Source of the DNA: a virus
IMG/VR virus record: IMGVR_UViG_3300017971_000207
Location: 81,434 to 145,433 of that record
Reading direction: 5' to 3' (one strand)
Length of the DNA: 64,000 nucleotides
The stretch's first letter is position 1. Every line of letters starts with the position of its first letter. Shown here piece by piece: positions 1 to 63,864 of this stretch. The translations under genes were made by a program, and so were the position numbers. The notes under the pieces are model-generated. The model did not search any database, was not told where the DNA came from, and saw only the letters and a list, made by a program, of their open reading frames with translations.

Positions 1-328
1 ACGTTCGTGAGCTCTTAAGGCCCGCAGGTCCCTCTTCACGCAGCCGCAAGTTTTGCAGGTGTAAGATTCGGTCGCCTTCGCGGATGTCTTCGGCATAGGA
101 CCAACCTCGTGCGGTCCAAAAAAGGTGGTTACCGCTAGCAGTTATCCTACGCTCACCACAATCTAGTGTAAAGGAGGTGTTAGCCCATTCATCTCGGACC
201 TCTACCACCGTCTCGATGCCTTGTTGACCAGAGGGTCCGAAGCTCACCACAGCGTCTCCCACCTGGACGCGTTCTATAGGCACTTGGAGACCCGAAGGCA
301 GCATTACGTTGGAGGATGGGTGTATGCA
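1..328 (-). mobile_element. Intein N-terminal part in AAA ATPase (after Walker B)
   Basis: Block A CIHPSSNVMLPSG..VPIERVQVGD and block B TASGNHLFWT. Confidence 0.75.
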
Positions 329-676
329 ATTGATCTCCTCTAGGCAGAGGATACAGCGGCCAACCTCATTGGCCACCTCGAAGGCGTTGGTTATGGGCCC
401 TAGAACAAAAGGGGTCGAGCCCCCTCGGATGATGTGCATCCCCAGCAGATGAGAGCGCCGCACATCCTCTGAGCAGTCAAAGGTGATGATCGGGCTCCGT
501 ACCTTGTTAGCGTAGTGCTGGATGGAGAGTGTTTTCCCTACCCCCTTCGGACCACACACAATTGCGGGTGCCCGAAAGGCTAGCCCATCATACAGAGGGA
601 GCAGGTCCAGGGCGTCGATGTAGGTAACCTGCTTCGGAGCGAAGCTGTCTGCGGGCAAACTTAGAATATCGCTCAT
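1..676 (-). CDS. MoxR/CbbQ-type AAA+ ATPase, intein-containing, runs off window edge
   Basis: Manual translation from ATG 676 (RBS AGGAG): Walker A GPKGVGKT, FDCSED, Walker B LEEIN followed by intein-like CIHPSSNVML. Confidence 0.8.
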   Translation of the reverse strand, partial: MSDILSLPADSFAPKQVTYIDALDLLPLYDGLAFRAPAIVCGPKGVGKTLSIQHYANKVRSPIITFDCSEDVRRSHLLGMHIIRGGSTPFVLGPITNAFEVANEVGRCILCLEEINCIHPSSNVMLPSGLQVPIERVQVGDAVVSFGPSGQQGIETVVEVRDEWANTSFTLDCGERRITASGNHLFWTARGWSYAEDIREGDRILHLQNLRLREEGPAGLKSSRT

Positions 677-687
677 CGCTCAGCTCC

Positions 688-1245
688 TCAGCAGTAGAAG
701 GTCAAAAGACGCCCATAGGGTCCCTGAGCTGCCTCGTGCGCCGGAGACTCCTGGAACTCGCCAACAGTGCGGGCGCCCTCGACGGTTATGATGGGCGCGA
801 CCCACACCCGCGTCTGGGGCCGAAAGCCGAGATGCGTGAATACTGCTAGCAGCGCGGGCTGCGGAGCGACCGGCTGTGTGTCTGCCAGGGCTAAGCCCAG
901 CAGGTCATCAATATCTTCCGAGACGCTTTCCCCGAGGGGAACCTCATCAACCGTCTCATAGATGGTCAGAACGCCCACCGCCTTGGTCACCTCCGCAAAG
1001 CGGCCAACCGCTGCTTGGTGATCCTCCAGAGATAGCTGCTTGCGCTCCACTGCCAGAACCTTAACCCCAATAGGCTCGCCGTCTGGGTCCGTGGTAGCCA
1101 ACAGCCACGAGGCCACGGGCAACCTTCCCCGCTGCGTTAATCTTAGCTGCGCCTGTGCAAAGGCCACCTCCGCAAAACGCTCCGCGCCTCTGAGCGTGTG
1201 CAGATCCTCCGGTAACCTTGGTCGTGTTGTCACTGCTAGTCCCAT
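688..1245 (-). CDS. Hypothetical protein
   Basis: 185 aa ORF; TTGACA-17-TATCTT promoter 6 nt before ATG. Confidence 0.7.
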   Translation of the reverse strand: MGLAVTTRPRLPEDLHTLRGAERFAEVAFAQAQLRLTQRGRLPVASWLLATTDPDGEPIGVKVLAVERKQLSLEDHQAAVGRFAEVTKAVGVLTIYETVDEVPLGESVSEDIDDLLGLALADTQPVAPQPALLAVFTHLGFRPQTRVWVAPIITVEGARTVGEFQESPAHEAAQGPYGRLLTFYC

Positions 1246-1287
1246 GCTGCGAAGATAATATGTAACCTCGCGATTGTCAAGCGAGGC

Positions 1288-3096: not shown

Positions 3097-3477
3097 ATGG
3101 ATACTCTTGTCGAACTCTGGGAAAAGCACAGCTTCTGGTTGATCCCTGTAGGCTGGGCGCTTCTCTCGGGCGCGCTCAACCTCGCGTTGCGCAAGCGCAC
3201 AGCGGAGGAGTGGGTCGAATATGCAGAGCAGCACCCGCGCCGGGCAGCTATCATCCGACTCATTCGCGCTCTGGGGTTTGATCCCGCTAAAGCTATCAAC
3301 GCTGTTCAGCACCTGGTAAATGGGAAAGCTGTAGCGACCCGACGAATGCTGCCGGAGCCTGCTGCTAAAGCTCTAGAGGCGGCAGAGATCCTAGCGACCG
3401 CTAAGGACGAGGACAAGGCCAACGAGGCCAAGAAGGACGAGAAGGAGAAGCCATGCGAAAAGCCGCAACCACCCTAA
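3097..3477 (+). CDS. Putative holin-like membrane protein
   Basis: N-terminal TM helix, charged C-terminus, RBS GGAGG, first gene of + strand cassette. Confidence 0.45.
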   Translation: MDTLVELWEKHSFWLIPVGWALLSGALNLALRKRTAEEWVEYAEQHPRRAAIIRLIRALGFDPAKAINAVQHLVNGKAVATRRMLPEPAAKALEAAEILATAKDEDKANEAKKDEKEKPCEKPQPP

Positions 3478-3824
3478 TCCTAGCCCTGGCAGCCCTGGTG
3501 CTAACCGGCTGTCCCCAGTTTAAGCCGTGGGCCCGAACAGCCCTCGAAGCAGCCCGACACGCCTGCGCTGCCTACGCGGAGCAAACGGGCCTGTCCTTCA
3601 AGGACGTGTGCGACACCGAGGAGAAGCTACGTCCGTTTATCGATTCGATCCTAGCAGCTCAAGCAGCAGCCGCGGCAAAGGGGGCGGCCGGAGCCTGCAA
3701 GTGCCCAAAGTGTGAGGAGGCCCCCAAGCCCGCTGCCCCCGCACCGAAGCCGCCTCCCCCCACGCCCTCCGCAAAGCCGGAGGCCAAACCCATCCCCAAG
3801 CCTGAGCCAGCACCAGGAGGCTGA
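3453..3824 (+). CDS. Lipoprotein with Pro-rich tail (spanin-like candidate)
   Basis: Signal peptide with lipobox LTGC; Pro/Lys-rich C-terminus. Confidence 0.7.
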   Translation: MRKAATTLILALAALVLTGCPQFKPWARTALEAARHACAAYAEQTGLSFKDVCDTEEKLRPFIDSILAAQAAAAAKGAAGACKCPKCEEAPKPAAPAPKPPPPTPSAKPEAKPIPKPEPAPGG

Positions 3825-3825
3825 G

Positions 3826-6800
3826 ATGACGGAGAAAGGCACAGGCTACATCCCATCGCCAGAGGACGAGCGGGACTACCCGCTGATAGGCCCAGGCGAG
3901 AACGCCCTCTTCGGGGCGCTGAACACAACGGTCCCCACCGAGCATCTAGCAATGCTACCGTTGATCGACTTCATCCGTGATCAAGGCGGCACCAACTCGT
4001 GCTTTCCTGCGGGCACTCGCGTGCTCCTGGAAGGCTTTACAGAGCGACCTATCGAACAGATTGCTCCAGGAAACCGTGTGCGGACGCACACAGGCCGAAG
4101 CGGTGCCGTCACAAAGGTGTCTGAGAGACCCTACGAGGGGCTGCTGTATTCGATCAAAGTAGGAGGCTGGATATACCCCCTAGAGGCTACTCCCGAGCAC
4201 CCCGTAGCCGTCATCGCCAACGTGTCCGCCAGAGCAAAGCACGGAGACTTCGAGCCTGGTGAGCTAACGTGGCGCCGGTTTGACGCGATACGTCCAGGAG
4301 ATCGTGTAGTCATGCCTGCAGACACCCGAGAGTTCCCCGAGGACTATCGGTCTGCGTGGCACGTGCTGCGCGTAGCGGACTATCTGGAAGGGGAGTACTG
4401 GGAGGAAGATGGCGCTGTTCGAGCGGCCATGGGAAGACGGGGGAGTGAGATACCTGCGGAGCTGGGGCTCACCCCCGATATCGGCAGGCTTCTCGGGCTG
4501 TTCCTAGCAGAGGGCAGCTTTCTCAAACCCAGCGGCACTAAACAGGGTGTGGCGTTCACCTTTGCGCGGCACGAAGCGCTCCTCCACACCTTCGTCTTGG
4601 AGGCCATGAGGACACACTTCGACCTGGAGGGCCAGAAGGAGGAGACGGAGCAGAAGCCCAACGTCACAACGTTGCTATTCTACAGCTCAACTGTAGCGCA
4701 GCTGTTCTACGCTCTGTGCGGAGAAGGGGCGCTACAGAAGCGCGTGCCCGACGTGTTTTTTGAGACAGGGCGCGACGTGAAGCTCGCACTCATCCGAGGG
4801 TGGTTTCAAGGAGATGGGTCTCAAGACCCCGTTCGTCTCCGCAGAAAGAAGGACGGCACTGTGCGCAAAGCTGCGGCCGTTCAAGGAGTCACAAGCTCTG
4901 AGGAGCTCCACCGTGGGCTATACCGCTTAGCCTCTCTCTGTAACATCAAGCTCAGTACGCAGCAGAGAAAGGTAGCGGAGCATCAAAACGCTGCCGGCCG
5001 CGAGCTGAACCTTTACGGGGACAACATCCTAAAGGTGTTCCCCGATGCAGCACCGCGCCTGGAAGCCGCTGGGATAAAGCTATCGGGACGGACCCGCTAC
5101 CGAAAGCACGCCTTGGGATATCTGTGCCGCGTAGAGGAGGTTTCTATGCGTGAGGCCCCCGCAGACACTAAGGTCTACAACTTGGAAGTCGAGGGGGATC
5201 ACTCGTACGTTGCCGAGGGCATCGCCGTCCACAACTGCGTCTGGCAATCCATCCAGCAGCAGCACTACATCGCACAGGGGGTACACGGGGTGCAGCAACG
5301 TCTACCCCTGAGCGTGATGTTCGGCTACTACCACACGCGCCTTCGCGGGGGCACGCAGAGGTTTGACAATGGCTGCTTCCCCAGGCTGGCCTGGCAGGTG
5401 GCGGAGAAGATCGGATTCTGTATCGAGGACCTGTGGCCCTTCAAGGAGCCCGAGATAAACCGACCGCCGAGTCTAGATGCCACCTCCGGGGCCATAGACC
5501 AGCGGTGGGTGCACGGCTACTACCACATCCTCGGACGCCCACGAGAGGAGGAGGTCCGACAGGCCCTCTCAAACAACCACCCTGTGGTATTCGGGACCGT
5601 CGTCGACAACGATTTCAAGCGGTACAAGGGCTCTAACCTTAGCACCGAGCCTATGAAGCCTCCGACGGGCCACTCCGGACGCCATATGATGTGCGCAGTT
5701 GCGTACGATCAAGACGGTCTGTGGGTGATCAACTCGTGGGGCTGTTACGACGATAAGACGGAGATTCTAACCGCCGCTGGGTGGAAGTCTTTTGCTGATG
5801 TCGTGGTGGGTGAGCCCGTCGCAACGCTTAATAGCCACGGGGAGCTGGAGTACCAGAATACGACTGACGTTCAACGCTACATCTACGACGGAGAGTTGTG
5901 GTCTTACCAGTCCCAAGGCGTAGACCTTGTTGTGACGCCAAACCACAACATGCTCATAGGACGCCGTTGTCGCGAAGGCGGTAAGCGCGTCCCCAAGTGG
6001 GAGCGCGTTCCGGCTGATCGCATCAACACCAAACACTTCTTGATGAAGAAAACGGCTGCCTGGTCAGGCGAAGAGCCTCCTTACATTGAGGTCGGTCCCC
6101 ACAGGATACCAACGGAGCTTTGGGTCGAGTTCCTCGGCTACTTCTTGTCCGAAGGTCATGCCCGAGAGAACGTGGTCCAACGGCCGGAGCGTGTGGCGCT
6201 TAACGGTACGACAGGTCGCGAGAAGCGGTACAGCGCGTGCAGCGAAACTCAGTACCTGGTGGGTATCCATCAAACCAAGTCTGAAGGTGTCTTCAAGATG
6301 GGCGCCTGTCTACGTCGCATGCCTGCCGCCTTCACCCGCATAACAGGGGGTTGGCAGGCAACATCTAGCCCACTGTGCGAGCATCTTCTCCCGCTCGGAA
6401 AAGCGCATCAGAAGTACATTCCTCCCTACGTCAAAAGGCTCTCTCCTCGGCTTCTACGAGTGTTCCTGAAGGCCGCTTGTCTCGGCGACGGCTCCCCTGT
6501 AGGCCGCAACGGCAGCGTCTACTACACCTCGTCCAAGCGGCTTGCTGACGATATACAGGAGGTTGCACTAAAGGCCGGGATGTGTGCAGATATACGCGAG
6601 GATGATCGCCGCGGTCGTACTAATGCGCGGGGGACCACTCGCTATGTGAACTACCAGGTGGCAATCAAACCCGTGAGGGGAGAAACCAAACCCAAAGGAG
6701 GCTTCACGCCAACAAAGATCCCCTACAAAGGTTTCGTGCGCTGCGTCACAGTACCGAACGGTCTGGTCTATGTTCGACGCAATGGTAAGGCGGTCTGGTC

Positions 6801-6936
6801 GGGCAACTCCGACTGGGGCTGCCCGGACCCATCAGGGTTCTATCGATCGGGGTTCTTTCATATGTCCTGGGAATGGGTAAACTGGTCAAGTGCCACTGAT
6901 TGGTGGGCCGTCCAATACCCAAAGATGTTCGTTTAG
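3826..6936 (+). CDS. Papain-like C1A cysteine peptidase precursor with two inteins (about 269 aa after splicing)
   Basis: Exteins give DQGGTNS|C, GRHMMCAVAY, NSWG|SDWG..GFF; ATG 3826 after AGGAGG. Confidence 0.9.
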   Translation: MTEKGTGYIPSPEDERDYPLIGPGENALFGALNTTVPTEHLAMLPLIDFIRDQGGTNSCFPAGTRVLLEGFTERPIEQIAPGNRVRTHTGRSGAVTKVSERPYEGLLYSIKVGGWIYPLEATPEHPVAVIANVSARAKHGDFEPGELTWRRFDAIRPGDRVVMPADTREFPEDYRSAWHVLRVADYLEGEYWEEDGAVRAAMGRRGSEIPAELGLTPDIGRLLGLFLAEGSFLKPSGTKQGVAFTFARHEALLHTFVLEAMRTHFDLEGQKEETEQKPNVTTLLFYSSTVAQLFYALCGEGALQKRVPDVFFETGRDVKLALIRGWFQGDGSQDPVRLRRKKDGTVRKAAAVQGVTSSEELHRGLYRLASLCNIKLSTQQRKVAEHQNAAGRELNLYGDNILKVFPDAAPRLEAAGIKLSGRTRYRKHALGYLCRVEEVSMREAPADTKVYNLEVEGDHSYVAEGIAVHNCVWQSIQQQHYIAQGVHGVQQRLPLSVMFGYYHTRLRGGTQRFDNGCFPRLAWQVAEKIGFCIEDLWPFKEPEINRPPSLDATSGAIDQRWVHGYYHILGRPREEEVRQALSNNHPVVFGTVVDNDFKRYKGSNLSTEPMKPPTGHSGRHMMCAVAYDQDGLWVINSWGCYDDKTEILTAAGWKSFADVVVGEPVATLNSHGELEYQNTTDVQRYIYDGELWSYQSQGVDLVVTPNHNMLIGRRCREGGKRVPKWERVPADRINTKHFLMKKTAAWSGEEPPYIEVGPHRIPTELWVEFLGYFLSEGHARENVVQRPERVALNGTTGREKRYSACSETQYLVGIHQTKSEGVFKMGACLRRMPAAFTRITGGWQATSSPLCEHLLPLGKAHQKYIPPYVKRLSPRLLRVFLKAACLGDGSPVGRNGSVYYTSSKRLADDIQEVALKAGMCADIREDDRRGRTNARGTTRYVNYQVAIKPVRGETKPKGGFTPTKIPYKGFVRCVTVPNGLVYVRRNGKAVWSGNSDWGCPDPSGFYRSGFFHMSWEWVNWSSATDWWAVQYPKMFV
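4000..5235 (+). mobile_element. Intein (412 aa) with LAGLIDADG endonuclease
   Basis: CFPAGT start, TPEHP, LGLFLAEG, RGWFQGDG, ends HN|C. Confidence 0.92.
5743..6807 (+). mobile_element. Intein (355 aa) with LAGLIDADG endonuclease
   Basis: CYDDKTE start, TPNH, LGYFLSEG, LGDG, ends GN|S. Confidence 0.92.
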
Positions 6937-6948
6937 GAGACCAACACA

Positions 6949-7305
6949 ATGAATCGTGAGCTAAACCGCTTGTTAGAGAGCGTACGTGCAGAGCTGGCAG
7001 AGGGCCTCCCCAAAGGGAAGTACCTGGGCCTACGAGACGCAAAAAGCATCGACATGAACCGTGTCCGGGTTGATCTAGAGACCACCTCTGGGGACAATCT
7101 AGGGGGCAACATCGAAACCCTCTTGAGAGGTGAGGACGATGTAAGGTGGCTTACGAGGCCGCCGCGACGAGGGGAGGGCACCGCGAGCTTCACCATCTTC
7201 GTCCGGGACCCGGACGAGTTCAAGTACCTGTGGAACACGTTGGAGCGTGCAGAGATCTACGACGACACTATCCTAAACTTCTACGTCAGCGTCACGGACA
7301 TCTAG
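6949..7305 (+). CDS. Hypothetical protein with MNRELN-type leader
   Basis: MNRELNRLLESVRAELAE; RBS AGGAG. Confidence 0.75.
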   Translation: MNRELNRLLESVRAELAEGLPKGKYLGLRDAKSIDMNRVRVDLETTSGDNLGGNIETLLRGEDDVRWLTRPPRRGEGTASFTIFVRDPDEFKYLWNTLERAEIYDDTILNFYVSVTDI

Positions 7306-7314
7306 GATATCGAC

Positions 7315-7656
7315 ATGCACCACCTTCCCTTCTTACTCATGCTGGCCCTCATGGTCTGCATGCTCCCCGCCTGCCCGGACCCTGTCATCCCTGGCCCTCA
7401 ATGGGACGGGGGGTCTGTTGAGCCCGACCCCGTTCTACCCCCTGGTGTTGATGCCAACGAGGCTGCCTGCAAGCGCCTAGAGGAGCTGCAGTGCAAGTCA
7501 AAGGATGGGCGCAACCTCTGGGAGCCCACACCCGGCGGCGTCTCCTGCGTCGACGTGTTCCGCAACGCAGAGAAGAATGGGGTCAACCTACACCCTGCGT
7601 GTTTGGCTAAAATAGAACGCTGTGAGGATAGGCATCGGTGTACCGACAAGGGCTAG
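7315..7656 (+). CDS. Cys-rich lipoprotein
   Basis: Signal peptide with lipobox LPAC; six further Cys; PQWDGG linker. Confidence 0.7.
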   Translation: MHHLPFLLMLALMVCMLPACPDPVIPGPQWDGGSVEPDPVLPPGVDANEAACKRLEELQCKSKDGRNLWEPTPGGVSCVDVFRNAEKNGVNLHPACLAKIERCEDRHRCTDKG

Positions 7657-8159
7657 TCCAGATGCGCCCATAAACGGCGTGTGACAAGTGCATGCACCAG
7701 GCTCTCACTGACATGGTACTTCTCCGCCAAGCTTCTCAGGGACACCTTTCGAGGGACGTATCTCCGCCTGATGTCTCGCACCTGTTCAGGAGTAAGCTTG
7801 GCGGACCCGTTGGCTTCGCCTGGGTGTGCAACGTGTCGTCCTTTGGACATCATGTCTCTCATGTTATCCGTGTGGGTCCCAACCCACAGGTGCTCTGGGT
7901 TGACGCAGGGTGGGTTGTCACACTTGTGCAGAACACAGAGCCCCTCGGGTATAGGGCCGCGGGTAAGCTCCCAAGATACTCGGTGGGCATAGGTAGATAT
8001 GCTGCTGAGTTCCTGTCGGCTCCCCTGCCTGAAGAACCCATACTGGGTACGGGAGTGTCGAGGACCCGTCCAAAGCCAACAATCTCCACTACAGTCCACA
8101 TGTTTCCAGAATCGCTCGGTCTCGACCAGGCCGAAGGTAGTCTGCTGTCTTGCTGTCAT
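7653..8159 (-). CDS. HNH homing endonuclease with C-terminal HTH
   Basis: RFW..V..CWLWTG, AHRVSW, VLHKCDNPPCVNPEHL..GT..DNM. Confidence 0.92.
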   Translation of the reverse strand: MTARQQTTFGLVETERFWKHVDCSGDCWLWTGPRHSRTQYGFFRQGSRQELSSISTYAHRVSWELTRGPIPEGLCVLHKCDNPPCVNPEHLWVGTHTDNMRDMMSKGRHVAHPGEANGSAKLTPEQVRDIRRRYVPRKVSLRSLAEKYHVSESLVHALVTRRLWAHLD

Positions 8160-8386
8160 GATGCAGGAGGCTCCGCAGGCGTACGAAGACCTCGGACCGC
8201 GACTAGCTGGGCTTCCAGAGATTGCTCTGCCTTCGGCAGCTCCTTGGCCAAGAACTCCCCCAACGCTTCCTTGATCAGCTTGTTTAGCGTAGTCTCTCTG
8301 TAGTCGGCTAGGAACTTGAGACGCTTGTGGGTAAAAGGATACAACCTAACAGTGATTTTGACAGGATCTTCGTCTTTTGACTCCAT
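8156..8386 (-). CDS. Ribbon-helix-helix DNA-binding protein
   Basis: KITVRL..HKRLKFLA..TTLNKLIKEALGEFL. Confidence 0.75.
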   Translation of the reverse strand: MESKDEDPVKITVRLYPFTHKRLKFLADYRETTLNKLIKEALGEFLAKELPKAEQSLEAQLVAVRGLRTPAEPPAS

Positions 8387-8391
8387 AATAG

Positions 8392-8409
8392 GAGTATGGC
8401 GGCATACTC
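8392..8409. promoter_or_regulatory. Palindromic operator candidate upstream of RHH gene
   Basis: GAGTATG-GCGG-CATACTC in the divergent intergenic gap. Confidence 0.5.
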
Positions 8410-8483
8410 AAGAGTTGCCGTCAAACCAACCGAAGATCGAAAAGTGTGAGGACCGTCACAGCTGCACCGACAAAGGATAGCCC

Positions 8484-10001: not shown

Positions 10002-10044
10002 GATGAACGCCATGAGATGACGAACAGGGAATGAGGAGAACAAG

Positions 10045-10782: not shown

Positions 10783-10784
10783 CC

Positions 10785-52727: not shown

Positions 52728-52753
52728 CAGAGCTCTTAGCGACCACGTGGTCG

Positions 52754-53281: not shown

Positions 53282-53292
53282 GGTTGGGTCCC

Positions 53293-54151: not shown

Positions 54152-54604
54152 TCAAGCCTCTGATGGTGGGGGCTCGGAGGGCTTCTCCTCCGTAAGCTCC
54201 TTGGGACCCTCCTCGGGCTTATTCAGCGGCTTGGTGGGGTCCGCAGGCCCTGGCGTTAGGTCTATCCCCGTCTTCTTCTTGACGGCCTTCCGAAGGACCT
54301 TGTACAGGAAGCTGCTGAACCACCCCACGATCACGCCCCACACAGCCGCCCCTCCAACCGTCTTAAGGTTGGCCAGGTAGTCCGAGCTGTAATGCTTGAC
54401 ACCAGCAGCGATACCCGCTCCTACCAGGACGGGCAGCAGGTAAAGCAGAACTCCCGTCCACCACCGCCCAAAAGCGTTCTCGGGGTCCTTCGCCTTGGGA
54501 TAGGCGAGCTCTACCACGCGCCTGACGAAGAAGGTGACGATCACGACCAACACCGAGAGGTATATGGTCTCGGCTTTCACTAGCTGTGAGAAGACCTCAT
54601 CCAT
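54152..54604 (-). CDS. Membrane protein, holin-like candidate
   Basis: Three TM helices, basic then Pro/Glu-rich tail. Confidence 0.6.
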   Translation of the reverse strand: MDEVFSQLVKAETIYLSVLVVIVTFFVRRVVELAYPKAKDPENAFGRWWTGVLLYLLPVLVGAGIAAGVKHYSSDYLANLKTVGGAAVWGVIVGWFSSFLYKVLRKAVKKKTGIDLTPGPADPTKPLNKPEEGPKELTEEKPSEPPPSEA

Positions 54605-54659
54605 CCCCCATAGATAGCACATTCCCTCGGACACCTGCAGCTGTGCTACCAGGGAGCAC

Positions 54660-54911
54660 CTAGCGTGATAGGCGTTTGCTGGGGCTTGCGGGGCGTACGG
54701 GCCCGCAGCGCACCACGATAACCCGGAAGCCCTCCCACGTCTCGGGGACGGGGTTGCGCCACCCTTTGGGGACGTAGGCGCACAGGGTAGGCTCCCCGTG
54801 CTCATCCTCCCCCACCCCCACGAACCTCGGACTCCGCGCGGTGCCGGGGCAACCTAGCTTCCTCCCCAAGCTATGGGCGGCCTGCTCCTGCTTAGTCTCT
54901 AGCGGGCTCAT
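54660..54911 (-). CDS. Hypothetical protein
   Basis: VGVG..L..YV..VP..WEG..V pattern. Confidence 0.5.
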   Translation of the reverse strand: MSPLETKQEQAAHSLGRKLGCPGTARSPRFVGVGEDEHGEPTLCAYVPKGWRNPVPETWEGFRVIVVRCGPVRPASPSKRLSR

Positions 54912-54978
54912 GACAAGCTGTGCGCCATCCGTCTCTGGGCCTTCTCGCCTAGGTTGTACCCACGCTTCCTGCTCATTC

Positions 54979-55272
54979 TTACTCTACCTCCATGGCGCAC
55001 TTAGCGCACCATCCTAGGGACCACCACAGCTGCAGGGGTCCGAGAAGCAGCCCATCGTTGGGGCCGTCGTAGTAGCTGTGGACGCGCCCCCACCTCGTCC
55101 AGCTCTTCGGGGTCCAGGCTAGGAGCGCGTAGCGCGCGCTAAGGCCCACCCAGCGGCCGTTCAGCTCCAGCTGCTCAATAACCCCCACATAGTCGCTCGC
55201 GAGCTCTAGAGCCCATCTACGGGGCGAAGCGGGCCCATCTGAGGGCACCTCTAGCAACGGTACGGTGAGCAT
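54979..55272 (-). CDS. Hypothetical Trp-rich protein
   Basis: Overlaps upstream stop; YYDGP. Confidence 0.5.
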   Translation of the reverse strand: MLTVPLLEVPSDGPASPRRWALELASDYVGVIEQLELNGRWVGLSARYALLAWTPKSWTRWGRVHSYYDGPNDGLLLGPLQLWWSLGWCAKCAMEVE

Positions 55273-56000
55273 CAGCACCCGACCTCCGCGTGCTGCAGAA
55301 GAGTCTCTATGTCCTTCCCGATCCAAACCAAACCACGAAGGGTCTTTACTAGCGCCTCATCAAGAATGTTGTGGCGCAAGATGCTCAGATCCTCCGAGAC
55401 GAGGAATAGGAACAAAGCGCGGCGCAGGGGAACGGCGACGGACTCTGGTGGAATAGCACGCATCCCTAACAGACGATCTAAAAAGCTCTCCCAGCTCTCA
55501 TACTTCGCCTCCTCGACGATATCCTTCCACTCCCTAAGCTCCTTAGCTCTACACTCCAAGGCCACCTCACTATCCCACCGGACATCCTGGTCATAGGGCA
55601 CAAGAGGATAGCGCCCTAGCTCCAGGCACCGCTTGATGTTGCGCTTGGTGCCGCTACTCTCGCGAGCCGACGGATGGGTATAGGCGAGGAAGTGGGTGCA
55701 GGCCTCGATCGCCGCGTCGTCGCGGGCCTCGTCGGTGGCGAATCCCCCCTCCAGCTGCCAGCTGCTGACCTTGGTGCGGTACCTGTCGGGCAGGTACCGC
55801 GGGCGCTCCCCGATGTGATATACGCTTACCCGCGTGGTGCGGGTCTTGAGAAGCTCCATCACCAAGGTATCGACCCCACGGAAGTCGCAGACGATGAAGC
55901 TCTCGTCGTCCTCGTACGGGAGGAGCCAAAGGGGCTCAGCATACAGCTTTACAAAGTCCTCGAAGCGTGCGCAGCCAGGACCAAAGATGTAGAGCCTCAC
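55272..56000 (-). CDS. Hypothetical protein with SLOG-like N-terminal domain
   Basis: FIV.D.RGVD..YH...PR..GGF....RD....S.GT.RN. Confidence 0.55.
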   Translation of the reverse strand: MRLYIFGPGCARFEDFVKLYAEPLWLLPYEDDESFIVCDFRGVDTLVMELLKTRTTRVSVYHIGERPRYLPDRYRTKVSSWQLEGGFATDEARDDAAIEACTHFLAYTHPSARESSGTKRNIKRCLELGRYPLVPYDQDVRWDSEVALECRAKELREWKDIVEEAKYESWESFLDRLLGMRAIPPESVAVPLRRALFLFLVSEDLSILRHNILDEALVKTLRGLVWIGKDIETLLQHAEVGC

Positions 56001-56440
56001 AGGCTTGCTCCCGACGCTGTGGGGTCATAAGCAACGACCTCGGGAGGCAACCCGACCGTCTCGATACGAGCAATGAGCTTGCATAGTCGCTGCTGTGTAC
56101 GTTTCTCAGCAGCTGCAAACTTAACAAATCGATCGTGTACCTCCTGATTATCGAAGTGCTCTAGCCAGTGCGACGCGGTGCGCTGCTGCTGAACCTCTCG
56201 GGCTGCAGACATGTTGGCAAGGCCCTTCAGCCCTTCAAGGATGACACGCTCGCGGTTGCCCGAGAGCCACGACCGGAAACGCTCCGCTGCGGCTTGCATG
56301 TCGCCCAGGACGTACGATGGGGGAGGACGGCAACGCAGCCACGCGCCGTCCAGCTCGCCACACATCCTACGGATGTCCGTCTTGGTCCACCGTTTAGCCG
56401 TTTTCACGATCCGGTGCTCCCCAGGTACGCATTGGCCCAC
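55997..56440 (-). CDS. Hypothetical protein
   Basis: Operon packing. Confidence 0.5.
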   Translation of the reverse strand: MGQCVPGEHRIVKTAKRWTKTDIRRMCGELDGAWLRCRPPPSYVLGDMQAAAERFRSWLSGNRERVILEGLKGLANMSAAREVQQQRTASHWLEHFDNQEVHDRFVKFAAAEKRTQQRLCKLIARIETVGLPPEVVAYDPTASGASL

Positions 56441-56760
56441 TCTAGATCGTCTTCCAACTCCCCGTGCTTGATCGCCTCGGTATGATGCCTTTCTCTCACC
56501 AAGCGCATTAGCCCCTCGATGGCCGCTTTGCTACCACTATCGTTGTCGTACTGCTCAGCTCTGTCACGGAGCCACGCTACAAGATAGACGTCGGATACAC
56601 CTATGTGTAAGCCCAGCTCCAGCTGTACCAGCACCAGCTCCGCGAGCCGCTTAGCTTTGCCGAGCATGCTAAAGATCTCCTCGGTGTCTGTCAGCTCGCG
56701 AATCTCTAGAATCTCCCCAGCAAGCATAAGCTGCTCCTTCCAGTAGTCCTCCGCATCCAT
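56404..56760 (-). CDS. Hypothetical protein
   Basis: Operon packing; start uncertain. Confidence 0.5.
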   Translation of the reverse strand: MDAEDYWKEQLMLAGEILEIRELTDTEEIFSMLGKAKRLAELVLVQLELGLHIGVSDVYLVAWLRDRAEQYDNDSGSKAAIEGLMRLVRERHHTEAIKHGELEDDLEWANAYLGSTGS

Positions 56761-56786
56761 GATCAACGTCCTTTCTCTATCAATGT

Positions 56787-57476
56787 CTAGCGTCCGTGTG
56801 ACATCCACAGCTCCTCGACCAGGGCTGCGGTACGGTCCCAATCCTGCGGTGTGAGCCCGTTCGGGTCCCAGGGCAAGATTGCGCACTCCACCGTGTGGCT
56901 CCAGGGGTACATCGCGGTCTTAGCCTCGCTCAGCAGCTGCTGATAGCCCTCGTGTATCTCCTGGAGGTACTCCAGCGTGATGTCGGCCTCCTGCGGTCTA
57001 CCGCGCTTCCTGATGCGCTCCAGGCACGTCTCGGGCCTGGCGTTCAGATACAGCAGGACCGTAGGGGGGAAGAGCACGAGGGACATGTTGCGGACGGCCG
57101 TCATGTAGATATCCCACTCCTTGGGGTGGATCGCCCCATGCTTCATCAGCACCTGCGCGAACACCATATCCCCCCAAAGGGAGCGATCGAGAATGGCGCC
57201 GTCATAGCCGGCTGAGACCATGGTCTCAGCCGCGGCCGACATCTGAGCAGCCCAGCGGCGGTGAAGCATCTCTATCTGGAAGGGGAAGGACCACCTCTCC
57301 TTATCCGCGTAGAACAGCTCCAGAAGCTCGGGGTCTACCGGCTCCTCGATTAGCCGCAGATTGAGGCGGTTGGCAAGCTCGCGGCTCGCGGTGCTCTTAC
57401 CTGCACCTATTGAGCCCTCAACAATGATCAACGGGCGCAGCCACGCCCTAACATCTTTCGGACCTCTACCGGTCAT
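56787..57476 (-). CDS. Deoxynucleoside kinase (dNK family)
   Basis: VEGSIGAGKST, EPV, FQ, DRS..D..F, RI..RGR..E, YL. Confidence 0.93.
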   Translation of the reverse strand: MTGRGPKDVRAWLRPLIIVEGSIGAGKSTASRELANRLNLRLIEEPVDPELLELFYADKERWSFPFQIEMLHRRWAAQMSAAAETMVSAGYDGAILDRSLWGDMVFAQVLMKHGAIHPKEWDIYMTAVRNMSLVLFPPTVLLYLNARPETCLERIRKRGRPQEADITLEYLQEIHEGYQQLLSEAKTAMYPWSHTVECAILPWDPNGLTPQDWDRTAALVEELWMSHGR

Positions 57477-57666
57477 CTGTGCTCTCCTATGGGCTAGTCC
57501 AGTCCAGTCTAATGTCCGACAGCCGCACGCGGCTACACAGAATCTGCACCACCTCGAACGAGGCCCCCCTATCCTCCGACGCCCTCAGCGCGATAACGTT
57601 GCTGCTGCTCACCGATGCCTCCCGTCTCCCAGCCCCTCTAGAGCTGGGAGAATAGCACGCCAGGAG

Positions 57667-57933
57667 CTAGTTAAGCTCCTCCTCATCGGAGGCCGTAGGG
57701 AGGCTCGGGACGGGGCTCGGCTCCTGGGCCTTCAGCTCGTCCTCAAAGCAGGCCATGGCCAGTGCCAAGAACGCCTGCGGGGGCGCCTGAAGGTCGATAA
57801 AGACGCGCGCCGCCATCCGAAGGCACACCCGGACAAACCGCCGTGTGTGGTCAGCATCCATGGGGATACCAAGAGCACTCATCTTACCCTTGACCGCCTC
57901 GCCCAGCTTCACCTGTAGCTCGATTCTCTCCAT
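57667..57933 (-). CDS. Hypothetical protein
   Basis: RBS AAGGAG; TTGACA-17-TACGCT promoter. Confidence 0.6.
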   Translation of the reverse strand: MERIELQVKLGEAVKGKMSALGIPMDADHTRRFVRVCLRMAARVFIDLQAPPQAFLALAMACFEDELKAQEPSPVPSLPTASDEEELN

Positions 57934-58048
57934 TGCGTTGCTCCTTGCCGCTGTGTTGGTTGGTATAATGTTTGGCGACACGACCAGCGTACCCACTAGC
58001 GTGGTGATTGTCAAGACGTTGGGTAAACTTTCCACAGACGAGGGTAAG

Positions 58049-59134
58049 ATGAGCACAGAGGCGCGTGATATTGTTGACGAGCTGACGGACCTACTGCTAA
58101 CGCATCCGGGCTGGGATGACCTGCTTCTGGCCTCAATCACGGAGGCGAAGGAGGAGGCGCTGCAGCGGGGGATGGAGCGGGCCAGGGAGTGGCCTGACGA
58201 CCTGGACGGCTACTTCGAGTATCTGCGTGGAGCGGTGCGGTGGATACCGCGGCAGGACTACCCGCGGGAGACGTTCAACCACCTGGCCAAGTTCTACTGG
58301 CTGCTGGACCAGCCGACGGGGCGGAAGCTGCAAGCTTCCGAGGAATTTAACCGGTGGATGTGCGACTTTGCAGCGGACTGGGGAGCTTTCCTCAGCACCT
58401 CTGCATCAGCGGCAGACCTGGCCACCTTTGAGGCAGACCCAGCTTACAACACCTGGCAGTATGTCAAGCCGCCGCATGGGTGGGCCACGTTCAACGACTT
58501 CTTCGCTCGCTACATCAAGCCAGGCATGCGGCCTGTGGCCGGCTACCGGCAGGATGCCATCATCACAAGCCCCGCCGACTGCACCTTCAAGGCTAAGTGG
58601 CCCATCAGCAACGACAGCACAGTCACGATCAAGTTCACCCACACCTACTCGGTCCTCGACCTGCTGGAGGGGAGCCCCTACCGCGACCGCTTTCGCGGCG
58701 GCCTGTTTGCTCACAGCTTCCTGGGTCCCTCGGACTACCACCACTTCCACTCACCGGTCCGGGGGACCGTGCTGGAGAGCCGAGCTGTGGTGGGCCGCGT
58801 ATTCCTCGGGGTCACGATCAACGAGCATGGGGAGTTTGAGGCGCCCGACAGAGCTGCCAACGGCTACGAGTTTCGGCAAGCTCGGGGCATCATCATCTTT
58901 GACAGCCCGATCGGGCTGGTCGCTGTCATCCCCGTAGGGATGGCGCAGGTCAGCTCGGTGAACATGACCGCTGTCGAGGGCTCCTACGTGAACAAAGGCG
59001 ATCGCTTCGGCTACTTCATGTTCGGCGGCTCGGACATCATCGTGCTGTTCGAGAAGGGCTCCGGGGTCGAGTGGACCGCTGCCCCCGGCATCCACACTAA
59101 CGTGGGGATGGCCGTCGCTGAGGTCTTTCGCTAG
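58049..59134 (+). CDS. psd: Phosphatidylserine decarboxylase family proenzyme
   Basis: TFNDFFAR, SPAD, DYHHFHSPV.G, VGM..VSS, GYF.FGGS self-cleavage motif. Confidence 0.92.
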   Translation: MSTEARDIVDELTDLLLTHPGWDDLLLASITEAKEEALQRGMERAREWPDDLDGYFEYLRGAVRWIPRQDYPRETFNHLAKFYWLLDQPTGRKLQASEEFNRWMCDFAADWGAFLSTSASAADLATFEADPAYNTWQYVKPPHGWATFNDFFARYIKPGMRPVAGYRQDAIITSPADCTFKAKWPISNDSTVTIKFTHTYSVLDLLEGSPYRDRFRGGLFAHSFLGPSDYHHFHSPVRGTVLESRAVVGRVFLGVTINEHGEFEAPDRAANGYEFRQARGIIIFDSPIGLVAVIPVGMAQVSSVNMTAVEGSYVNKGDRFGYFMFGGSDIIVLFEKGSGVEWTAAPGIHTNVGMAVAEVFR

Positions 59135-59676
59135 ATATCGACGCCGTTCACCCATGCGGGGTCGTAGGGGTCCGAGAGACCTGCGCAGGTGAGGTCCTCC
59201 GCGTCGCCCTCAATCTGCATCAGGTAGGTCACGGTCCAGTCCTCGGGGTTGGCCCACTCAATCACCTCGTCCGGGGCCTTAGCCGTCTCCTCAAGGCCGT
59301 CCTCAACCGCCTCGGGGGTCACGGTGCGTGTGATGCCGAAAACACGTCCTGTAAGCTCTGATCGTAGAAGGCGGCGCGGCGTCTTAAAGTTCCTCATCTC
59401 CCCGAGCTGCTGCCACGTCTCCTTGCGCTGCTCATAGAGGCCGTCTACTCGCCGGCGTAGCATCGTTACGCAGCGCTCGATCGGGTACTGTCGCGGTTTG
59501 AAGGTAGCCAGGAGCTCGTCGGCCACCCAGACCTGGTGCATTCGGTCGAGGCGCTCTCGGACCACCCCACACTTTGCGCAGTGCCGATTGCCACCACCCC
59601 CTATTGAGGTCTCCTCAAACGGGTACCCGAAAAGCTCCGTCGCACACTCGGTGCATAGCCATGCCAGCTGTCTCAT
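59131..59676 (-). CDS. Zn-finger domain protein
   Basis: WLCTECATELF..CAKCGVVR; N-terminus duplicated in next ORF. Confidence 0.65.
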   Translation of the reverse strand: MRQLAWLCTECATELFGYPFEETSIGGGGNRHCAKCGVVRERLDRMHQVWVADELLATFKPRQYPIERCVTMLRRRVDGLYEQRKETWQQLGEMRNFKTPRRLLRSELTGRVFGITRTVTPEAVEDGLEETAKAPDEVIEWANPEDWTVTYLMQIEGDAEDLTCAGLSDPYDPAWVNGVDI

Positions 59677-59912
59677 GATGGGATCTCCGTAAGCTCCGCA
59701 GGCGCCTGGGTCGAGATGCCTGCGGCCTGAAAGAACTCCTCGGTGGCGTTGCACCAGTGCATCCGATCGCTCTGCTTCCGGACCACCCCACACTTAGCGC
59801 AGCGGCGCTTCCCCTGGCCGAGCGTCTGCCAATTCTTGAAAGGAAAGGCAAAAAGCTCTGTCGCACAGTCGGTACATAACCAGACTTGGTCTTTTCTCTT
59901 CTGCTCACTCAT
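59673..59912 (-). CDS. Small Zn-finger protein
   Basis: WLCTDCATELF..CAKCGVVR..DRMH. Confidence 0.65.
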   Translation of the reverse strand: MSEQKRKDQVWLCTDCATELFAFPFKNWQTLGQGKRRCAKCGVVRKQSDRMHWCNATEEFFQAAGISTQAPAELTEIPS

Positions 59913-60520
59913 GATTGCATCTCCATGTACTCGGCCACCACCTCACCTCGGCGGAGCAACACCAAGCCCCCCCGAAAAGCCATAGGTCCTTGATCGGAGG
60001 CGTACCGCCACAGCTCGTCGCCGTCCTGCCATTGATCGCAGAAACGGTCCCATTCGGGCTCGCCGGTACGCGTCGGCGGCTCTCCCTTGGGGGTACGCTC
60101 TATCAGCCGTGTCTTGAGCCTCGCCATCCAGCCCGGAATACTCGGCGCTGCCGGCCCAACGGTGGTGGCCTCCATCACGGTGTCGTCCACCACGTCCACG
60201 TGGAGGGGTCGCGGTGTCTCCGTCTCCCGGCGGTTGTCGGCCCGCAACGTGGGCAGGTTGGCCGCGCCGGTAACCCACAGCACGCCTTGAATGAAGCCCA
60301 GCCACCGCTGGGCCTTGTCCAGCTTCTCAGCCTCTAGGTGTCCGAGAGCCTCCTCACACATCCACAGGGCGTGCTTGAGGGCCGCCTCGGGCCACGGCTT
60401 GACATCGACGAGCCCATACCGCGGGGGGAAGGGAGGAGCTTCTAGGCCCCGCTCCTTGAAGGCGGCGCCGATGTGCTCCTGGCACCGTTTGATCGCTCGC
60501 CGTACACGCGCGGCGTCCAT
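59909..60520 (-). CDS. Hypothetical two-domain protein
   Basis: H.LWM..K..RWLGFIQG; GDELW..GL.L.R.G. Confidence 0.65.
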   Translation of the reverse strand: MDAARVRRAIKRCQEHIGAAFKERGLEAPPFPPRYGLVDVKPWPEAALKHALWMCEEALGHLEAEKLDKAQRWLGFIQGVLWVTGAANLPTLRADNRRETETPRPLHVDVVDDTVMEATTVGPAAPSIPGWMARLKTRLIERTPKGEPPTRTGEPEWDRFCDQWQDGDELWRYASDQGPMAFRGGLVLLRRGEVVAEYMEMQS

Positions 60521-61056
60521 CACCCCTCCAGCTCCGTGTAGCATCCCCTGTGGTACCAGACGTGCGGGCCGTACTTCGCAATACGCTCAGTGCCCCCACC
60601 CACAGACCGCAGCACGGTATCCTCAGCTACCCCGACCGCGTCCTCGTAGCCTAGAGCTGGTAGATCAACCACGTTTCGGCCGCAGACAGCACAAGAATGA
60701 ACTATCAGCAGCCTATTGCTCTCGGGCAGCCATCCGCCCGTGAGAACCTGCTGAACGACACGAAAGGTCGCAGCCCGCCACTTCCGCCTGATGTGCTCGG
60801 GCAGGTCCTCCCAGGTGGGCATGGGCTTACCCTCGTAGTTCTTCCAATCCGCATCCTCGCCGTAGGCGACGTAGCCTATACGAGCCAAGCTCTCGTGCTG
60901 GAGCAGCTGCTCAGACGTAGCGGATGCTCGGGCTGCTACCTCCCGCTCTACATCAAGCGCCTGCTGCCGCTCCTCCTCCTCGCAAAGTATCTTGGCTAAG
61001 TACGCCACATCCTCGGGCGTCATGTTGCGTAGATCAATCTCTCTCGGGCGCTTCAT
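60520..61056 (-). CDS. Hypothetical protein
   Basis: Y.AY...WKNY.G.PMP.WEDLP..W. Confidence 0.65.
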   Translation of the reverse strand: MKRPREIDLRNMTPEDVAYLAKILCEEEERQQALDVEREVAARASATSEQLLQHESLARIGYVAYGEDADWKNYEGKPMPTWEDLPEHIRRKWRAATFRVVQQVLTGGWLPESNRLLIVHSCAVCGRNVVDLPALGYEDAVGVAEDTVLRSVGGGTERIAKYGPHVWYHRGCYTELEG

Positions 61057-61367: not shown

Positions 61368-61450
61368 CCTCTAGTCTCCCCTAGGGCCAAAGCACAACGC
61401 ATGGAACGCCGTCTGGTTTGAGGTCCTCCTCGCTGTCAGCTCTTTAACGA

Positions 61451-61924
61451 TCATCCCACCCCCTTTACCAGCAGCAGCGTGCCTCCGCCCTCATGAGGAC
61501 ATTCGAGCGGGCGGGCATCCAGCGCTCTCGGCCGCCGATCGTCATCAGTGGCCGAGTGTGTGCATTTCCCCTGCGCCTGCACCCCGCGGCCGCTCTTTAC
61601 CGCAAAGGGGCACTCTCGACAGCGCGACACCTCGATCGTGTACGCAGGCGCTACTGCGATTCCCGTAGGGGGCTCGGACTCAGGTGGAGGGGGCTCTGGC
61701 TTCGGCTCTGGCTCAGGCTCGGGTGGAGGGGGCTCTGGCTCTGGTACCGGAGGCTGTTCGGCCAGGCGTCGAATAAGCTCATCCTTCAGCATTCGGACGG
61801 GGCTTTCGGCCGTCTCCGGTGGCGTAACGAAGCCCACCTTGGGGCGACGTTTGAGGACCGCTGCCTGAAAGGACTCGATCAGCTCCTCTGTGTCCATCTC
61901 CGTTACAGGTGTGTCGCTGCTCAT
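61451..61924 (-). CDS. Pro-rich protein with C-terminal Cys motif
   Basis: PEPEP repeats; C.ECPF..C..CP; RBS AGGAG. Confidence 0.6.
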   Translation of the reverse strand: MSSDTPVTEMDTEELIESFQAAVLKRRPKVGFVTPPETAESPVRMLKDELIRRLAEQPPVPEPEPPPPEPEPEPKPEPPPPESEPPTGIAVAPAYTIEVSRCRECPFAVKSGRGVQAQGKCTHSATDDDRRPRALDARPLECPHEGGGTLLLVKGVG

Positions 61925-62030
61925 CTATCGGTCTCCTATACGTCTGAGGGTTTAGGTCCCCACTAGCGCGGGGAAGCTCCGTCACCAGGGGCTAAGCCAA
62001 CCGTTCCGCTAAACTTACCAAAAGTTACCA

Positions 62031-63254
62031 TTAGGTAGCTCCTGCGTTAGCTTCCTGCCCAGAAGGTAGTTTCACTCGGCCCACATGGACCAAGCCAGCG
62101 CTCCCTTGGCGACAGGCTGACACCCCGGAACTCGGGGCCAAAGTCTTCAGATTCACAGCAGCGTTCAGGTCCCTATCCATCACCAGACCACACCGCTCAC
62201 AACGATAGGTTCGCTCTCCGAGACCCAAGGTCTCTTTGACGTGTCCACAACGTGAGCACCTCTTGGATGATGGATAGAATCTGTCTGCCTTGACCAAGAT
62301 GGCACCATACCACCTGGCCTTATATTCAAGCTGCCTGTGGAACTCCGACAAGGAAGCGTCGCTCAAAGCTCGGCTCAGCCTACGGTTCTTGAGCATCCCG
62401 GCAACATTCAGGTCCTCAATCACAATCGTCCCCGCCGACTTGGCTATCATCGTCGTGGCCTTGTTGATTGAGTCTCGTCTGATGCAGGATACTCGATAGT
62501 GCTGACGAGCTAGCTGAAGCTTGGCTTTCCTTCGGTTCTTTGATCCTTTCTTCCGCCTTGAGACGGCCTTTGACAAGCGACGAAGGCGCTTCAGCGCCCC
62601 ACCCAAAGCTCTTGGGTTCTCGAACACCTCGCCCTCAGAGGTCACTGCGAGATGTGAAATACCAACATCCGCCCCAAGCACACCTTTGGCGGACCTCGGC
62701 TCTGGTCTGTCCTTCTCGACGGAGAGGGAAACGAACCACCGCCCGGCCCGCTCAGAGATGGTCGCTGAGAGCACTTTGACTCCATCCTGGGGAAGGTAGC
62801 CCTGCTCCTTCAAACGGAGCCTACCAAGCCTCGGGAGCTGAATATGAGTGCCTTCGGAGGTGACCTTGACGGTGCCGGTGAGAGTGAAGCTTCCAATCCC
62901 GTTCCTTCGGCTTTTGAAGCGAGGGAATCCCTTCCTTTTGGCCCCTTGCTTGCAACGCCTAAAGAAGCTCTTGTAAGCCTTATCAAGGTTCCTCAAGCTC
63001 TCCTGGGCCGCGCACTTCGAGACCTCATACATCCAGGGGACGCCGCCCTGCTCCTTGGGGAGCTTCTTCAGCTTGTTCAGCTCCCGGTGAAGCTCCATGG
63101 CGCTCGGAGAGCGTTTGGTTGTCCGATAGCTCTCGATCTTCTGACGAAGGCCCCAGTTGAAGGCCCACCGAGCAGCTCCCGCGTGCTTCAAGAGCAGTGT
63201 CCGCTGAACGTTGTTGGGGTCCAGCTCCACTTTATAGCCACGGTTCACCTTCAT
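62031..63254 (-). CDS. tnpB: TnpB RNA-guided endonuclease
   Basis: RuvC GADVG, IEDL, DRDLNAA; Zn finger CSRC/CERC; GFPRFK. Confidence 0.95.
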   Translation of the reverse strand: MKVNRGYKVELDPNNVQRTLLLKHAGAARWAFNWGLRQKIESYRTTKRSPSAMELHRELNKLKKLPKEQGGVPWMYEVSKCAAQESLRNLDKAYKSFFRRCKQGAKRKGFPRFKSRRNGIGSFTLTGTVKVTSEGTHIQLPRLGRLRLKEQGYLPQDGVKVLSATISERAGRWFVSLSVEKDRPEPRSAKGVLGADVGISHLAVTSEGEVFENPRALGGALKRLRRLSKAVSRRKKGSKNRRKAKLQLARQHYRVSCIRRDSINKATTMIAKSAGTIVIEDLNVAGMLKNRRLSRALSDASLSEFHRQLEYKARWYGAILVKADRFYPSSKRCSRCGHVKETLGLGERTYRCERCGLVMDRDLNAAVNLKTLAPSSGVSACRQGSAGLVHVGRVKLPSGQEANAGAT

Positions 63255-63864
63255 TTTCCTGGGCCTTCCTCTTGCGGTTGGCGGCAGAGCGACGACCATA
63301 GATCCTTGCGGAGAAGGATGACATCAGAGAAAGGATGTCCGAGACAAGCTCCTCCTCGTAGCTCTTGCCCAGAGCCTTTCGAACCCACTCTATCCGAACA
63401 CCATGGCTCGCAAAGTAGCTCTCAAGGAACCCAAAGGAGAAGCGGCAGAGGCGATCCTTATGCTCGACTACAACCACGTCCACCTTGTGCTCGTTGACTA
63501 GCTTGAAGAGCCGATGAAGCTTTGACCTCGTATCAGACATCCCCGAGCCAACCTCTCGAAGCACGGCTTTGACCTGGTACTCCTTCTTGGCGCAATAGGC
63601 TGAAACACGGCCTACCTGACGTTCAAGGTCGCCCTTCTGCTTCTGGTCATGGCTGCTTACGCGACAGTAGACCACGGCTCTGAGAACCGCGCTCTCAGGC
63701 TGCTGGCCCTGAAGAGCTTGAATATCCGAGAGACGATAGCGCCGATGACCTCCTGGGGTGCGGACAGCTTGGAGACGGCCTTCGTTATCCCACCGACGTA
63801 GTGTACTCGGGTCTGCTCCAAGCTGCTTGGCCGCCTGACGGAGCGTTAGGAGTCGCTCACTCAT
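63232..63864 (-). CDS. tnpA: IS607 TnpA serine recombinase
   Basis: MerR-like HTH (TLRRWD..RTPGGHRRY), YCRVSS, EVGSG, HKDRL.R. Confidence 0.95.
   Translation of the reverse strand: MSERLLTLRQAAKQLGADPSTLRRWDNEGRLQAVRTPGGHRRYRLSDIQALQGQQPESAVLRAVVYCRVSSHDQKQKGDLERQVGRVSAYCAKKEYQVKAVLREVGSGMSDTRSKLHRLFKLVNEHKVDVVVVEHKDRLCRFSFGFLESYFASHGVRIEWVRKALGKSYEEELVSDILSLMSSFSARIYGRRSAANRKRKAQENEGEPWL

Follow-up and report, generated by a model that had tools for sequence, protein, structure and literature searches.

The genome of a large, uncultured phage from marine sediment, tailed and of the contractile type, carries 125 copies of the short non-palindromic word GYCCGAGA(G), or one per 1.16 kb. The phage is represented by the single virus contig IMGVR_UViG_3300017971_000207 (145,433 bp, 60.6% G+C), and our analysis centered on its last 64 kb (contig 81434-145433; hereafter the window, to which coordinates refer unless the contig is named). 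An initial annotation, made from the letters of the window, had described an over-represented octamer, GTCCGAGA, which proved to be only half of the full motif. The enrichment is real and robust, and the word can now be defined better than it was then. It is a signal in the DNA itself, not explained by peptide sequence, and under each null model tried it is the dominant non-random feature of the genome.

The octamer GTCCGAGA is present 39 times in the window (27 on the plus strand and 12 on the minus strand) and 55 times in the contig. All 36 positions given initially were exact matches, but three plus-strand copies (29335, 32788, and 55038) had been missed. Dinucleotide-preserving shuffles of the window yielded 3.05 ± 1.71 copies, the highest count in 100 shuffles being 9 and so short of the observed 39, in good agreement with the two to three copies predicted at first. 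An unbiased k-mer scan uncovered the sister word GCCCGAGA, with 36 copies in the window and 70 in the contig; both this variant and the preferred ninth base had been overlooked, which left the original definition incomplete. The base following the octamer is G at 77 of the 125 contig sites (47 of the 75 window sites). Position 2 is C in 70 cases, T in 55, and A or G in 12 each, and single-base variants are rare at all other positions. The 9-mer GYCCGAGAG reaches a density of 0.53 per kb.

Copies of GTCCGAGA span positions 192..63344. On the plus strand they start at 16099, 20449, 20949, 24451, 25119, 29335, 29604, 32190, 32788, 33600, 35617, 36175, 39602, 40391, 40868, 41249, 41366, 44514, 45116, 45822, 46855, 50683, 51234, 55038, 59170, 60340, and 63337; those on the minus strand, read as TCTCGGAC, start at 192, 2243, 16049, 17915, 20572, 24959, 38478, 48942, 51903, 52509, 59555, and 61336. 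Copies of GCCCGAGA span 3164..61049. Their plus-strand starts are 5448, 6160, 12419, 17469, 18432, 20381, 23521, 27948, 30403, 32487, 41667, 41783, 42422, 47154, 48173, 50074, and 56258, and the minus-strand copies, read as TCTCGGGC, start at 3164, 4491, 14786, 21464, 26756, 32881, 36038, 39502, 41168, 41639, 43429, 44723, 47307, 50068, 51361, 56196, 57029, 60720, and 61042.

The Markov and codon-preserving controls proposed with the initial annotation were run, and the enrichment persisted under every one of them, Markov orders 1 to 6 included. For the 55 contig copies of GTCCGAGA, Markov models of orders 1 to 5 expected 7.2, 6.5, 6.9, 12.5, and 23.4 copies, and the maximal-order model 39.6 (z 4.8). 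The sister word GCCCGAGA was level with GTCCGAGA as the most deviant octamer for orders 1 to 5, both being significant at maximal order; for orders 1 to 4 the two occupied the first two ranks among octamers. When synonymous codons were shuffled inside each gene, keeping the proteins and the codon usage, 7.3 ± 2.5 genic copies of GTCCGAGA were expected and 44 observed (z 14.8); for GCCCGAGA the figures were 9.2 and 58 (z 17.4). In a comparison of all k-mers with these shuffles, sub-words and extensions of GYCCGAGAG ranked top for each k from 6 to 10, and the enrichment climbed with added flanking bases: CCGAG was enriched 1.3-fold, the two 9-mers 10-fold. Over-representation of GYCCGAGAG against the expectation from proteins and codon usage amounted to about 8-10 fold.

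The contig is also purged of certain palindromes. CTCGAG and CCCGGG are absent, although 83 and 63 copies were expected, and AGGCCT is present once (68 expected); GGATCC and AATT are likewise low. This purge points to XhoI-, SmaI-, and StuI-type restriction in the host. CCCGAG, the core of GCCCGAGA, is one transition away from both CTCGAG and CCCGGG. We therefore used a further null in which synonymous swaps were rejected whenever a forbidden site arose, so that proteins, codon usage, and the CTCGAG/CCCGGG/AGGCCT purge were all kept. It expected 7.2 genic copies of GTCCGAGA, 10.1 of GCCCGAGA, and 7.2 of the 9-mer, against 47, 60, and 66 observed. Since even this null expects far fewer copies than are found, the purge does not explain the word.

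Its independence from coding is equally clear. Between 102 and 107 of the 125 sites (at least 82%) lie inside genes, unannotated DNA holds about 0.9 sites per kb, close to the overall 0.86 (by arithmetic from the site counts), and each of the six classes of frame and orientation is enriched, 3- to 8-fold. Both orientations exceed the codon-shuffle expectation, 7.5-fold and 4.8-fold. At the 426 peptide positions compatible with the word, 107 encode it (25%), whereas 14.6 were expected (3.4%); slightly more peptides are compatible with it than expected (426 versus 381 ± 18). Apart from a 3-base periodicity due to coding, a G or T favored immediately ahead of the word, and the ninth G, the flanks hold no information, ruling out a repeated protein motif or a dispersed repeat as its origin. 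The initial annotation had argued from copies in differing reading frames and in non-coding DNA that the signal acts at the DNA level; such copies were confirmed, in both orientations relative to genes, and the codon-preserving nulls and the similar enrichment in all six frames support that core proposal.

Along the contig, GYCCGAGA was found 81 times on the plus strand and 44 times on the minus strand (65% on plus). The ratio of plus to minus is 59:27 within minus-strand genes and 10:6 within plus-strand genes; because the bias is the same in both gene directions, orientation follows the genome strand and not transcription. No clean switch point exists along the contig, and the absence of an obvious polarity switch at 45 kb, noted earlier, holds for the block of plus-strand genes at 45.7-50.6 kb. 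Every region of the contig is enriched, 4- to 17-fold, with a density of 0.62 per kb in the first 80 kb versus 1.17 per kb in the window and an approximate doubling in the right-hand 50 kb, where GTCCGAGA is the more concentrated variant. The densest 5-kb bin, with 12 sites, covers 38567..43566 (contig 120001-125000). Gaps between sites are Poisson-like (coefficient of variation 0.9-1.15), which rules out regular spacing, and we found neither a trend in site position along genes nor an association with promoters or gene starts. The longest site-free stretches fall in the head-protein region, in intein-rich genes, and within a gene of 2523 aa, part of which is empty; there is no copy in the gene for phosphatidylserine decarboxylase (PSD), none in the TnpB gene of an IS607-type element, and one in that element as a whole. 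The copies at 41249 and 41366, 117 nt apart and with near-identical flanks, are the only pair within a local repeat. One back-to-back inverted pair, in which TCTCGGGC overlaps GCCCGAGA, reads TCTCGGGCCCGAGA (50068..50081). Inverted pairs within 75 nt number only about 4 among the 125 sites, and hairpin pairs are thus not the usual form of the word.

A megablast search of GenBank phages returned no close relative, the nearest full-length homolog of the phage helicase among 5.8 billion proteins is 52% identical, and a protein search found no homolog of a 927-aa phage protein. The nearest contigs, at about 70% nucleotide identity in conserved genes, are G001-G003, identified by their head proteins, which share 83-69% of amino acids with that of the phage, as well as L229 and L230 from one ENA study. 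The word is not enriched in these relatives: the 62 kb of G001 contain 16 copies where 10.7 were expected, and the 16 kb of L230 contain 3 where 2.1 were expected. The CTCGAG/CCCGGG/AGGCCT purge is likewise absent from G001 and L230, the latter keeping 18 CTCGAG in its 16 kb. Word sites are conserved at 1 of 8 positions aligned with G001 and at 2 of 5 in the 2-kb fragment L229, which at one aligned site carries GCCCGGGC where our phage has GCCCGAGA. As the relatives show neither feature and few sites are conserved, both the word and the purge were acquired after the split from the available relatives. The word is not enriched in two other large-phage contigs that carry a PSD gene. Near-identical DNA was found in one sediment metagenome (2018), from which the contig probably derives, and one seawater metagenome (2021); contigs from a second run (X2) are identical to the window over 20 kb and so offer no variation for a study of fine-scale evolution. 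The relative G002, from IMG/VR, has an iterated word of its own, the 18-bp palindrome AAGGTCCGTACGGACCTT, in about 11 copies (e.g., at 1064, 4428, and 10467), probably a regulatory site. Being a palindrome of this kind, the GTCCGTA-rich word of G002 was rejected as a counterpart of GYCCGAGA and regarded as an element of another type.

A bacterium sharing the word was sought among 807 genomes, comprising five identified through TnpB matches plus 401 Chloroflexota and 401 Pseudomonadota, the two sets of 401 being drawn evenly from their phyla. The sample included the unpublished genomes G046, G153, G181, G235, G280, G352, and G795, on none of which we make any claim singly. Enrichment in candidate hosts, a test proposed with the initial annotation, was not seen in any genome of this sample; the highest density of the 9-mer was about 0.06 per kb, near that of a reversed-word control, versus 0.53 in the phage. 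Marker genes were no better guides to the host. The best matches of the IS607 TnpB are merely 50-57% identical and come from Chloroflexota and Asgard metagenome-assembled genomes, the 68-73% identical homologs of PSD sit on large phage contigs and not in cellular genomes, and for RNase HII the protein atlas yielded no useful taxon. A scan of IMG/VR for three copies of the word in a row returned tandem repeats only, and two contigs that had seemed word-rich (G814 and G813) were rejected as products of selection bias, position 2 taking all four bases equally. A literature search with the word and its complement as strings returned only primer and guide sequences.

The search for a reader within the phage was carried out by family searches of about 65 of its proteins, and no obvious sequence-specific reader emerged. 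We found no RecB-type PD-(D/E)XK nuclease in the contig and, within the 64% of the genome that it is estimated to cover, no match to the C5, N4/N6, or D12 DNA methyltransferases (PF00145, PF01555, PF02086), leaving the earlier idea of a modification site unsupported. Recognition by a primase was set aside although a DnaG-type primase is encoded: known DnaG or T7-type primases recognize trinucleotides and make primers that begin with a purine, and this fits neither strand of the word.

The reading that we rank first, and hold tentatively, is that GYCCGAGA(G) is a host-specific, Chi-like recognition word of a nuclease or other enzyme that tracks along DNA. Chi, a short word read as single-stranded DNA, causes a RecBCD/AddAB-like helicase-nuclease of the host to change from degrading broken or linear DNA to recombinational repair. 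Here, selection on the DNA itself would have written the word into the phage genome, mostly via synonymous codon choice, and the phage would have gained it while adapting to one particular host, in parallel with the palindrome purge. Both orientations might be of use if breaks arose inside the genome, e.g., under the restriction to which the purge testifies. The reader and its action we infer. The many dispersed copies, the indifference to frame and transcription, and the mild polarity along the genome strand fit a machine tracking along DNA. Chi is the only published class of such phage words, and it is the precedent of the Chi-rich phages LLS, P1, and MD8 (PMC12315714) that places this reading first. 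The doubling of density toward one contig end, which resembles those phages, and the lineage restriction of the word, parallel to a plainly host-driven purge, also speak for it. Weak enrichment in a host would not speak against it, because in PAO1, the host of MD8, the MD8 word ranks only 43rd among octamers by frequency (PMC12315714). As functions, the initial annotation had offered mimicry of Chi, binding of a coating or packaging protein, and self-recognition or modification; none of them is confirmed, and a Chi-like role is the one with the best precedent (PMC12315714).

Several observations weigh against a Chi-like word. Known Chi words are G-rich and 5-8 nt long, whereas the present one has 8-9 nt and a degenerate position. 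None of the sampled Chloroflexota or Pseudomonadota genomes nears the density of the phage. The strand bias is weak, with 65% of sites on the plus strand versus 20:3 in LLS and 100% on one strand in MD8 and its relatives. The phage encodes a UvsX-like recombinase, while the Chi-rich lambdoid phages are without a recombination module (PMC12315714; Bobay et al. 2013, PMC3784561). Moreover, the higher density toward one end cannot be tied to a physical genome end, as the ends of the contig are assembly ends.

Alternatively, the word could be the site at which a phage-encoded protein binds or acts, word and protein having co-evolved in this lineage. Such a reader might be a small DNA-binding protein coating or organizing the genome, or a helicase, nuclease, or nickase with a recognition word of its own. 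We regard this possibility as almost as likely as a Chi-like word, because the word is confined to one lineage and about a third of the genome is missing from the contig. It agrees with the lack of the word in the closest relatives, in the two PSD-bearing large-phage contigs, and in the sampled bacteria, and the strong enrichment of both orientations is what a duplex-binding protein predicts. Candidate readers are plentiful, since most genes of the motif-dense right-hand region are without a family assignment. However, none was recognized as such, the sites show no link to promoters, gene starts, or regular spacing, a duplex binder does not account for a plus-strand preference that holds irrespective of gene direction, and our literature search gave no published phage protein site present some 125 times in coding DNA, the stoperators of mycobacteriophages coming nearest. 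Somewhat more doubtfully, the word might be a private "self" word of the phage lineage, read not by the host but by a phage-encoded tracking enzyme or binding protein; a phage helicase/nuclease system might then spare or recombine phage DNA bearing the word while host DNA is degraded to feed nucleotide salvage.

It seems unlikely that the word instead marks DNA as "self" throughout the genomes of the host lineage, in the manner of the DNA uptake sequences (DUS) and uptake signal sequences (USS) or of highly iterated words, with the phage exchanging DNA with that host or being selected in it. In its frequency of about one per kb, its presence on either strand, in every frame, and outside coding DNA, and its overriding of codon preference, the word matches DUS and USS, but such tags are very abundant in their hosts and nothing comparable was seen in the 807 genomes from two phyla. 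Inverted pairs that could act as terminators are rare, the word is not palindromic, and a 65:35 strand bias is atypical of uptake sequences. Less probable still is a word with no reader at all, left behind by a bias of mutation or repair (e.g., very-short-patch-type repair toward a methylated site) or by the purge of CTCGAG and CCCGGG. The complete absence of these two palindromes, each one transition from the GCCCGAGA core, and the GCCCGGGC found in L229 opposite GCCCGAGA would be in keeping with such an origin. It is largely refuted, however, by the purge-keeping null, and GTCCGAGA, which is no one-step neighbor of either palindrome, is enriched equally. An effect on a hexamer cannot yield an enrichment that rises with each flanking base from 1.3- to 10-fold, and a methyltransferase of any of the three families is missing from the contig.

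Words selected genome-wide are rare and direct read-outs of a DNA-scanning machine, and here the word, taken with the purging of three restriction palindromes, gives a clear signature of adaptation to a host. Chi-rich phages are on record so far only from enteric bacteria and Pseudomonas, whose Chi had been known beforehand. Should GYCCGAGA be the Chi of an uncultured marine bacterium, or serve it as some other tracking signal, the phage would reveal the word before the host, and the word could be used to find that host. If its reader is phage-encoded, the virus would be marking its own DNA by sequence and not by base modification, a virus-owned counterpart of Chi; in the literature searched, we found no description of a virus that does so.

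The contig is classed as linear in IMG/VR with a CheckV completeness of 64%, from which the genome should be substantially larger. On the left it truncates an open reading frame of >1656 aa (L001, contig 2-4969, minus strand), and on the right it stops 136 nt past the IS607-type element (62031-63864), which encodes TnpB (422 aa) and a serine-recombinase TnpA with a MerR-type HTH (210 aa). Structural genes encode a tail sheath, a major head protein, a protease, and a portal. Those for replication specify the DnaG-type primase, a DnaB-like helicase, and an intein-bearing ResIII-type helicase, and the UvsX-like RecA-family recombinase (contig 62217-64532) also contains an intein. A UvrD-like helicase and a ribonucleotide reductase are present, together with a large set of nucleotide salvage genes, RNA repair genes, and numerous inteins and homing endonucleases. 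Three consecutive tRNA-Leu genes (anticodons TAA, TAG, and GAG) lie outside the window at contig 38439-39186. The PSD gene (57845-59134) lies on the opposite strand, and the large phage contigs bearing its homologs measure 163 kb, 313 kb, and 32 kb; judging from these matches, the gene circulates among big phages.

A few further elements were seen in the window. A set resembling RNA repair genes, consisting of a LigT/2H phosphoesterase with a weak Acb1-like match, a PTP-SAK phosphatase, and a HAD_SAK_2 protein, is accompanied by an R2K ATP-grasp protein (the four at 16033-16602, 18805-19473, 23161-23769, and 35032-35760). In L230 the same phosphatase and HAD genes adjoin PSD. A conserved extended -35 box, cTTGACAAT, is found on the minus strand at 19512, 30228, 39020, 44253, and 58007, followed at 39020 and 44253 at least by a TATAAT-like box about 17 nt on; this box is the most enriched word of G001. 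By their sequence these sites look like sigma-70-type early promoters, and their TTGACA-N17-TATAAT arrangement speaks for a bacterium as host. Another element, separate from the word GYCCGAGA, is a perfect 14-bp palindrome, CGACCACGTGGTCG, with about 8 mostly intergenic copies (17176-17189, 41184-41197, 43536-43549, 50602-50615, and 52740-52753, and contig 5866, 23119, and 39312), probably an operator or a terminator-type site. Finally, AAACTCCC and GGGAGTTT cluster as inverted repeats (hairpins) in two intergenic regions, 37761-37880 and 45004-45185.

Several known systems resemble the present one in part. The uptake sequences of Neisseriaceae (DUS) and Pasteurellaceae (USS) also occur about once per kb on both strands, lie within genes in all frames, and are kept against codon preference. 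They are, however, properties of competent bacterial lineages, read by the uptake machinery, whereas no bacterium bearing GYCCGAGA was found in our sample, the word is strand-biased, and terminator-forming pairs are few. HIP1 (GCGATCGC) of cyanobacteria, a palindromic octamer of debated function, is hyper-abundant in host genomes and alters codon choice genome-wide, as our word does in the phage; the latter differs in being asymmetric (reverse complement TCTCGGRC) and in being known so far from one phage lineage. The stoperators of cluster A mycobacteriophages, sites of the L5 gp71 repressor, are likewise short, asymmetric, dispersed, and specific to a phage lineage, with a phage protein as reader. 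They number a few dozen, are mostly intergenic, and are oriented with transcription, in contrast to 125 sites of which the great majority are within coding sequence and in orientations independent of transcription. Translocase-orienting words (KOPS/SRS) switch polarity very strongly at the terminus, unlike a word with 65% of its copies on one strand and no clean switch. A target of restriction-modification would not be expected to be 8-10 fold over-represented, nor does the contig hold a match to a cognate methyltransferase.

The closest parallel is with the Chi-rich phages. The E. coli phages LLS and P1 have 23 Chi sites (1 per 1.86 kb, strands 20:3) and 50 (1 per 1.9 kb), respectively, and the Pseudomonas phage MD8 has 32, all on one strand (32:0); in all three, the host Chi is the commonest phage octamer, words overlapping it come next, and the sites cluster toward one end (PMC12315714). 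Our phage differs in that its word is unrelated to any known Chi, comprises 8-9 bp with a Y position, and has 65% of its copies on one strand versus 87-100% in LLS and MD8, and in its UvsX-like recombinase; we did not file it among the Chi-rich phages because two of their defining features, sites in one orientation and the lack of a recombination module, fail here. As in those phages, the top octamer is non-palindromic and over-represented beyond composition and codon usage, the next words overlap it, the density is in the order of one per 1-2 kb and rises toward one end, and enrichment in the phage can far exceed that in the host.

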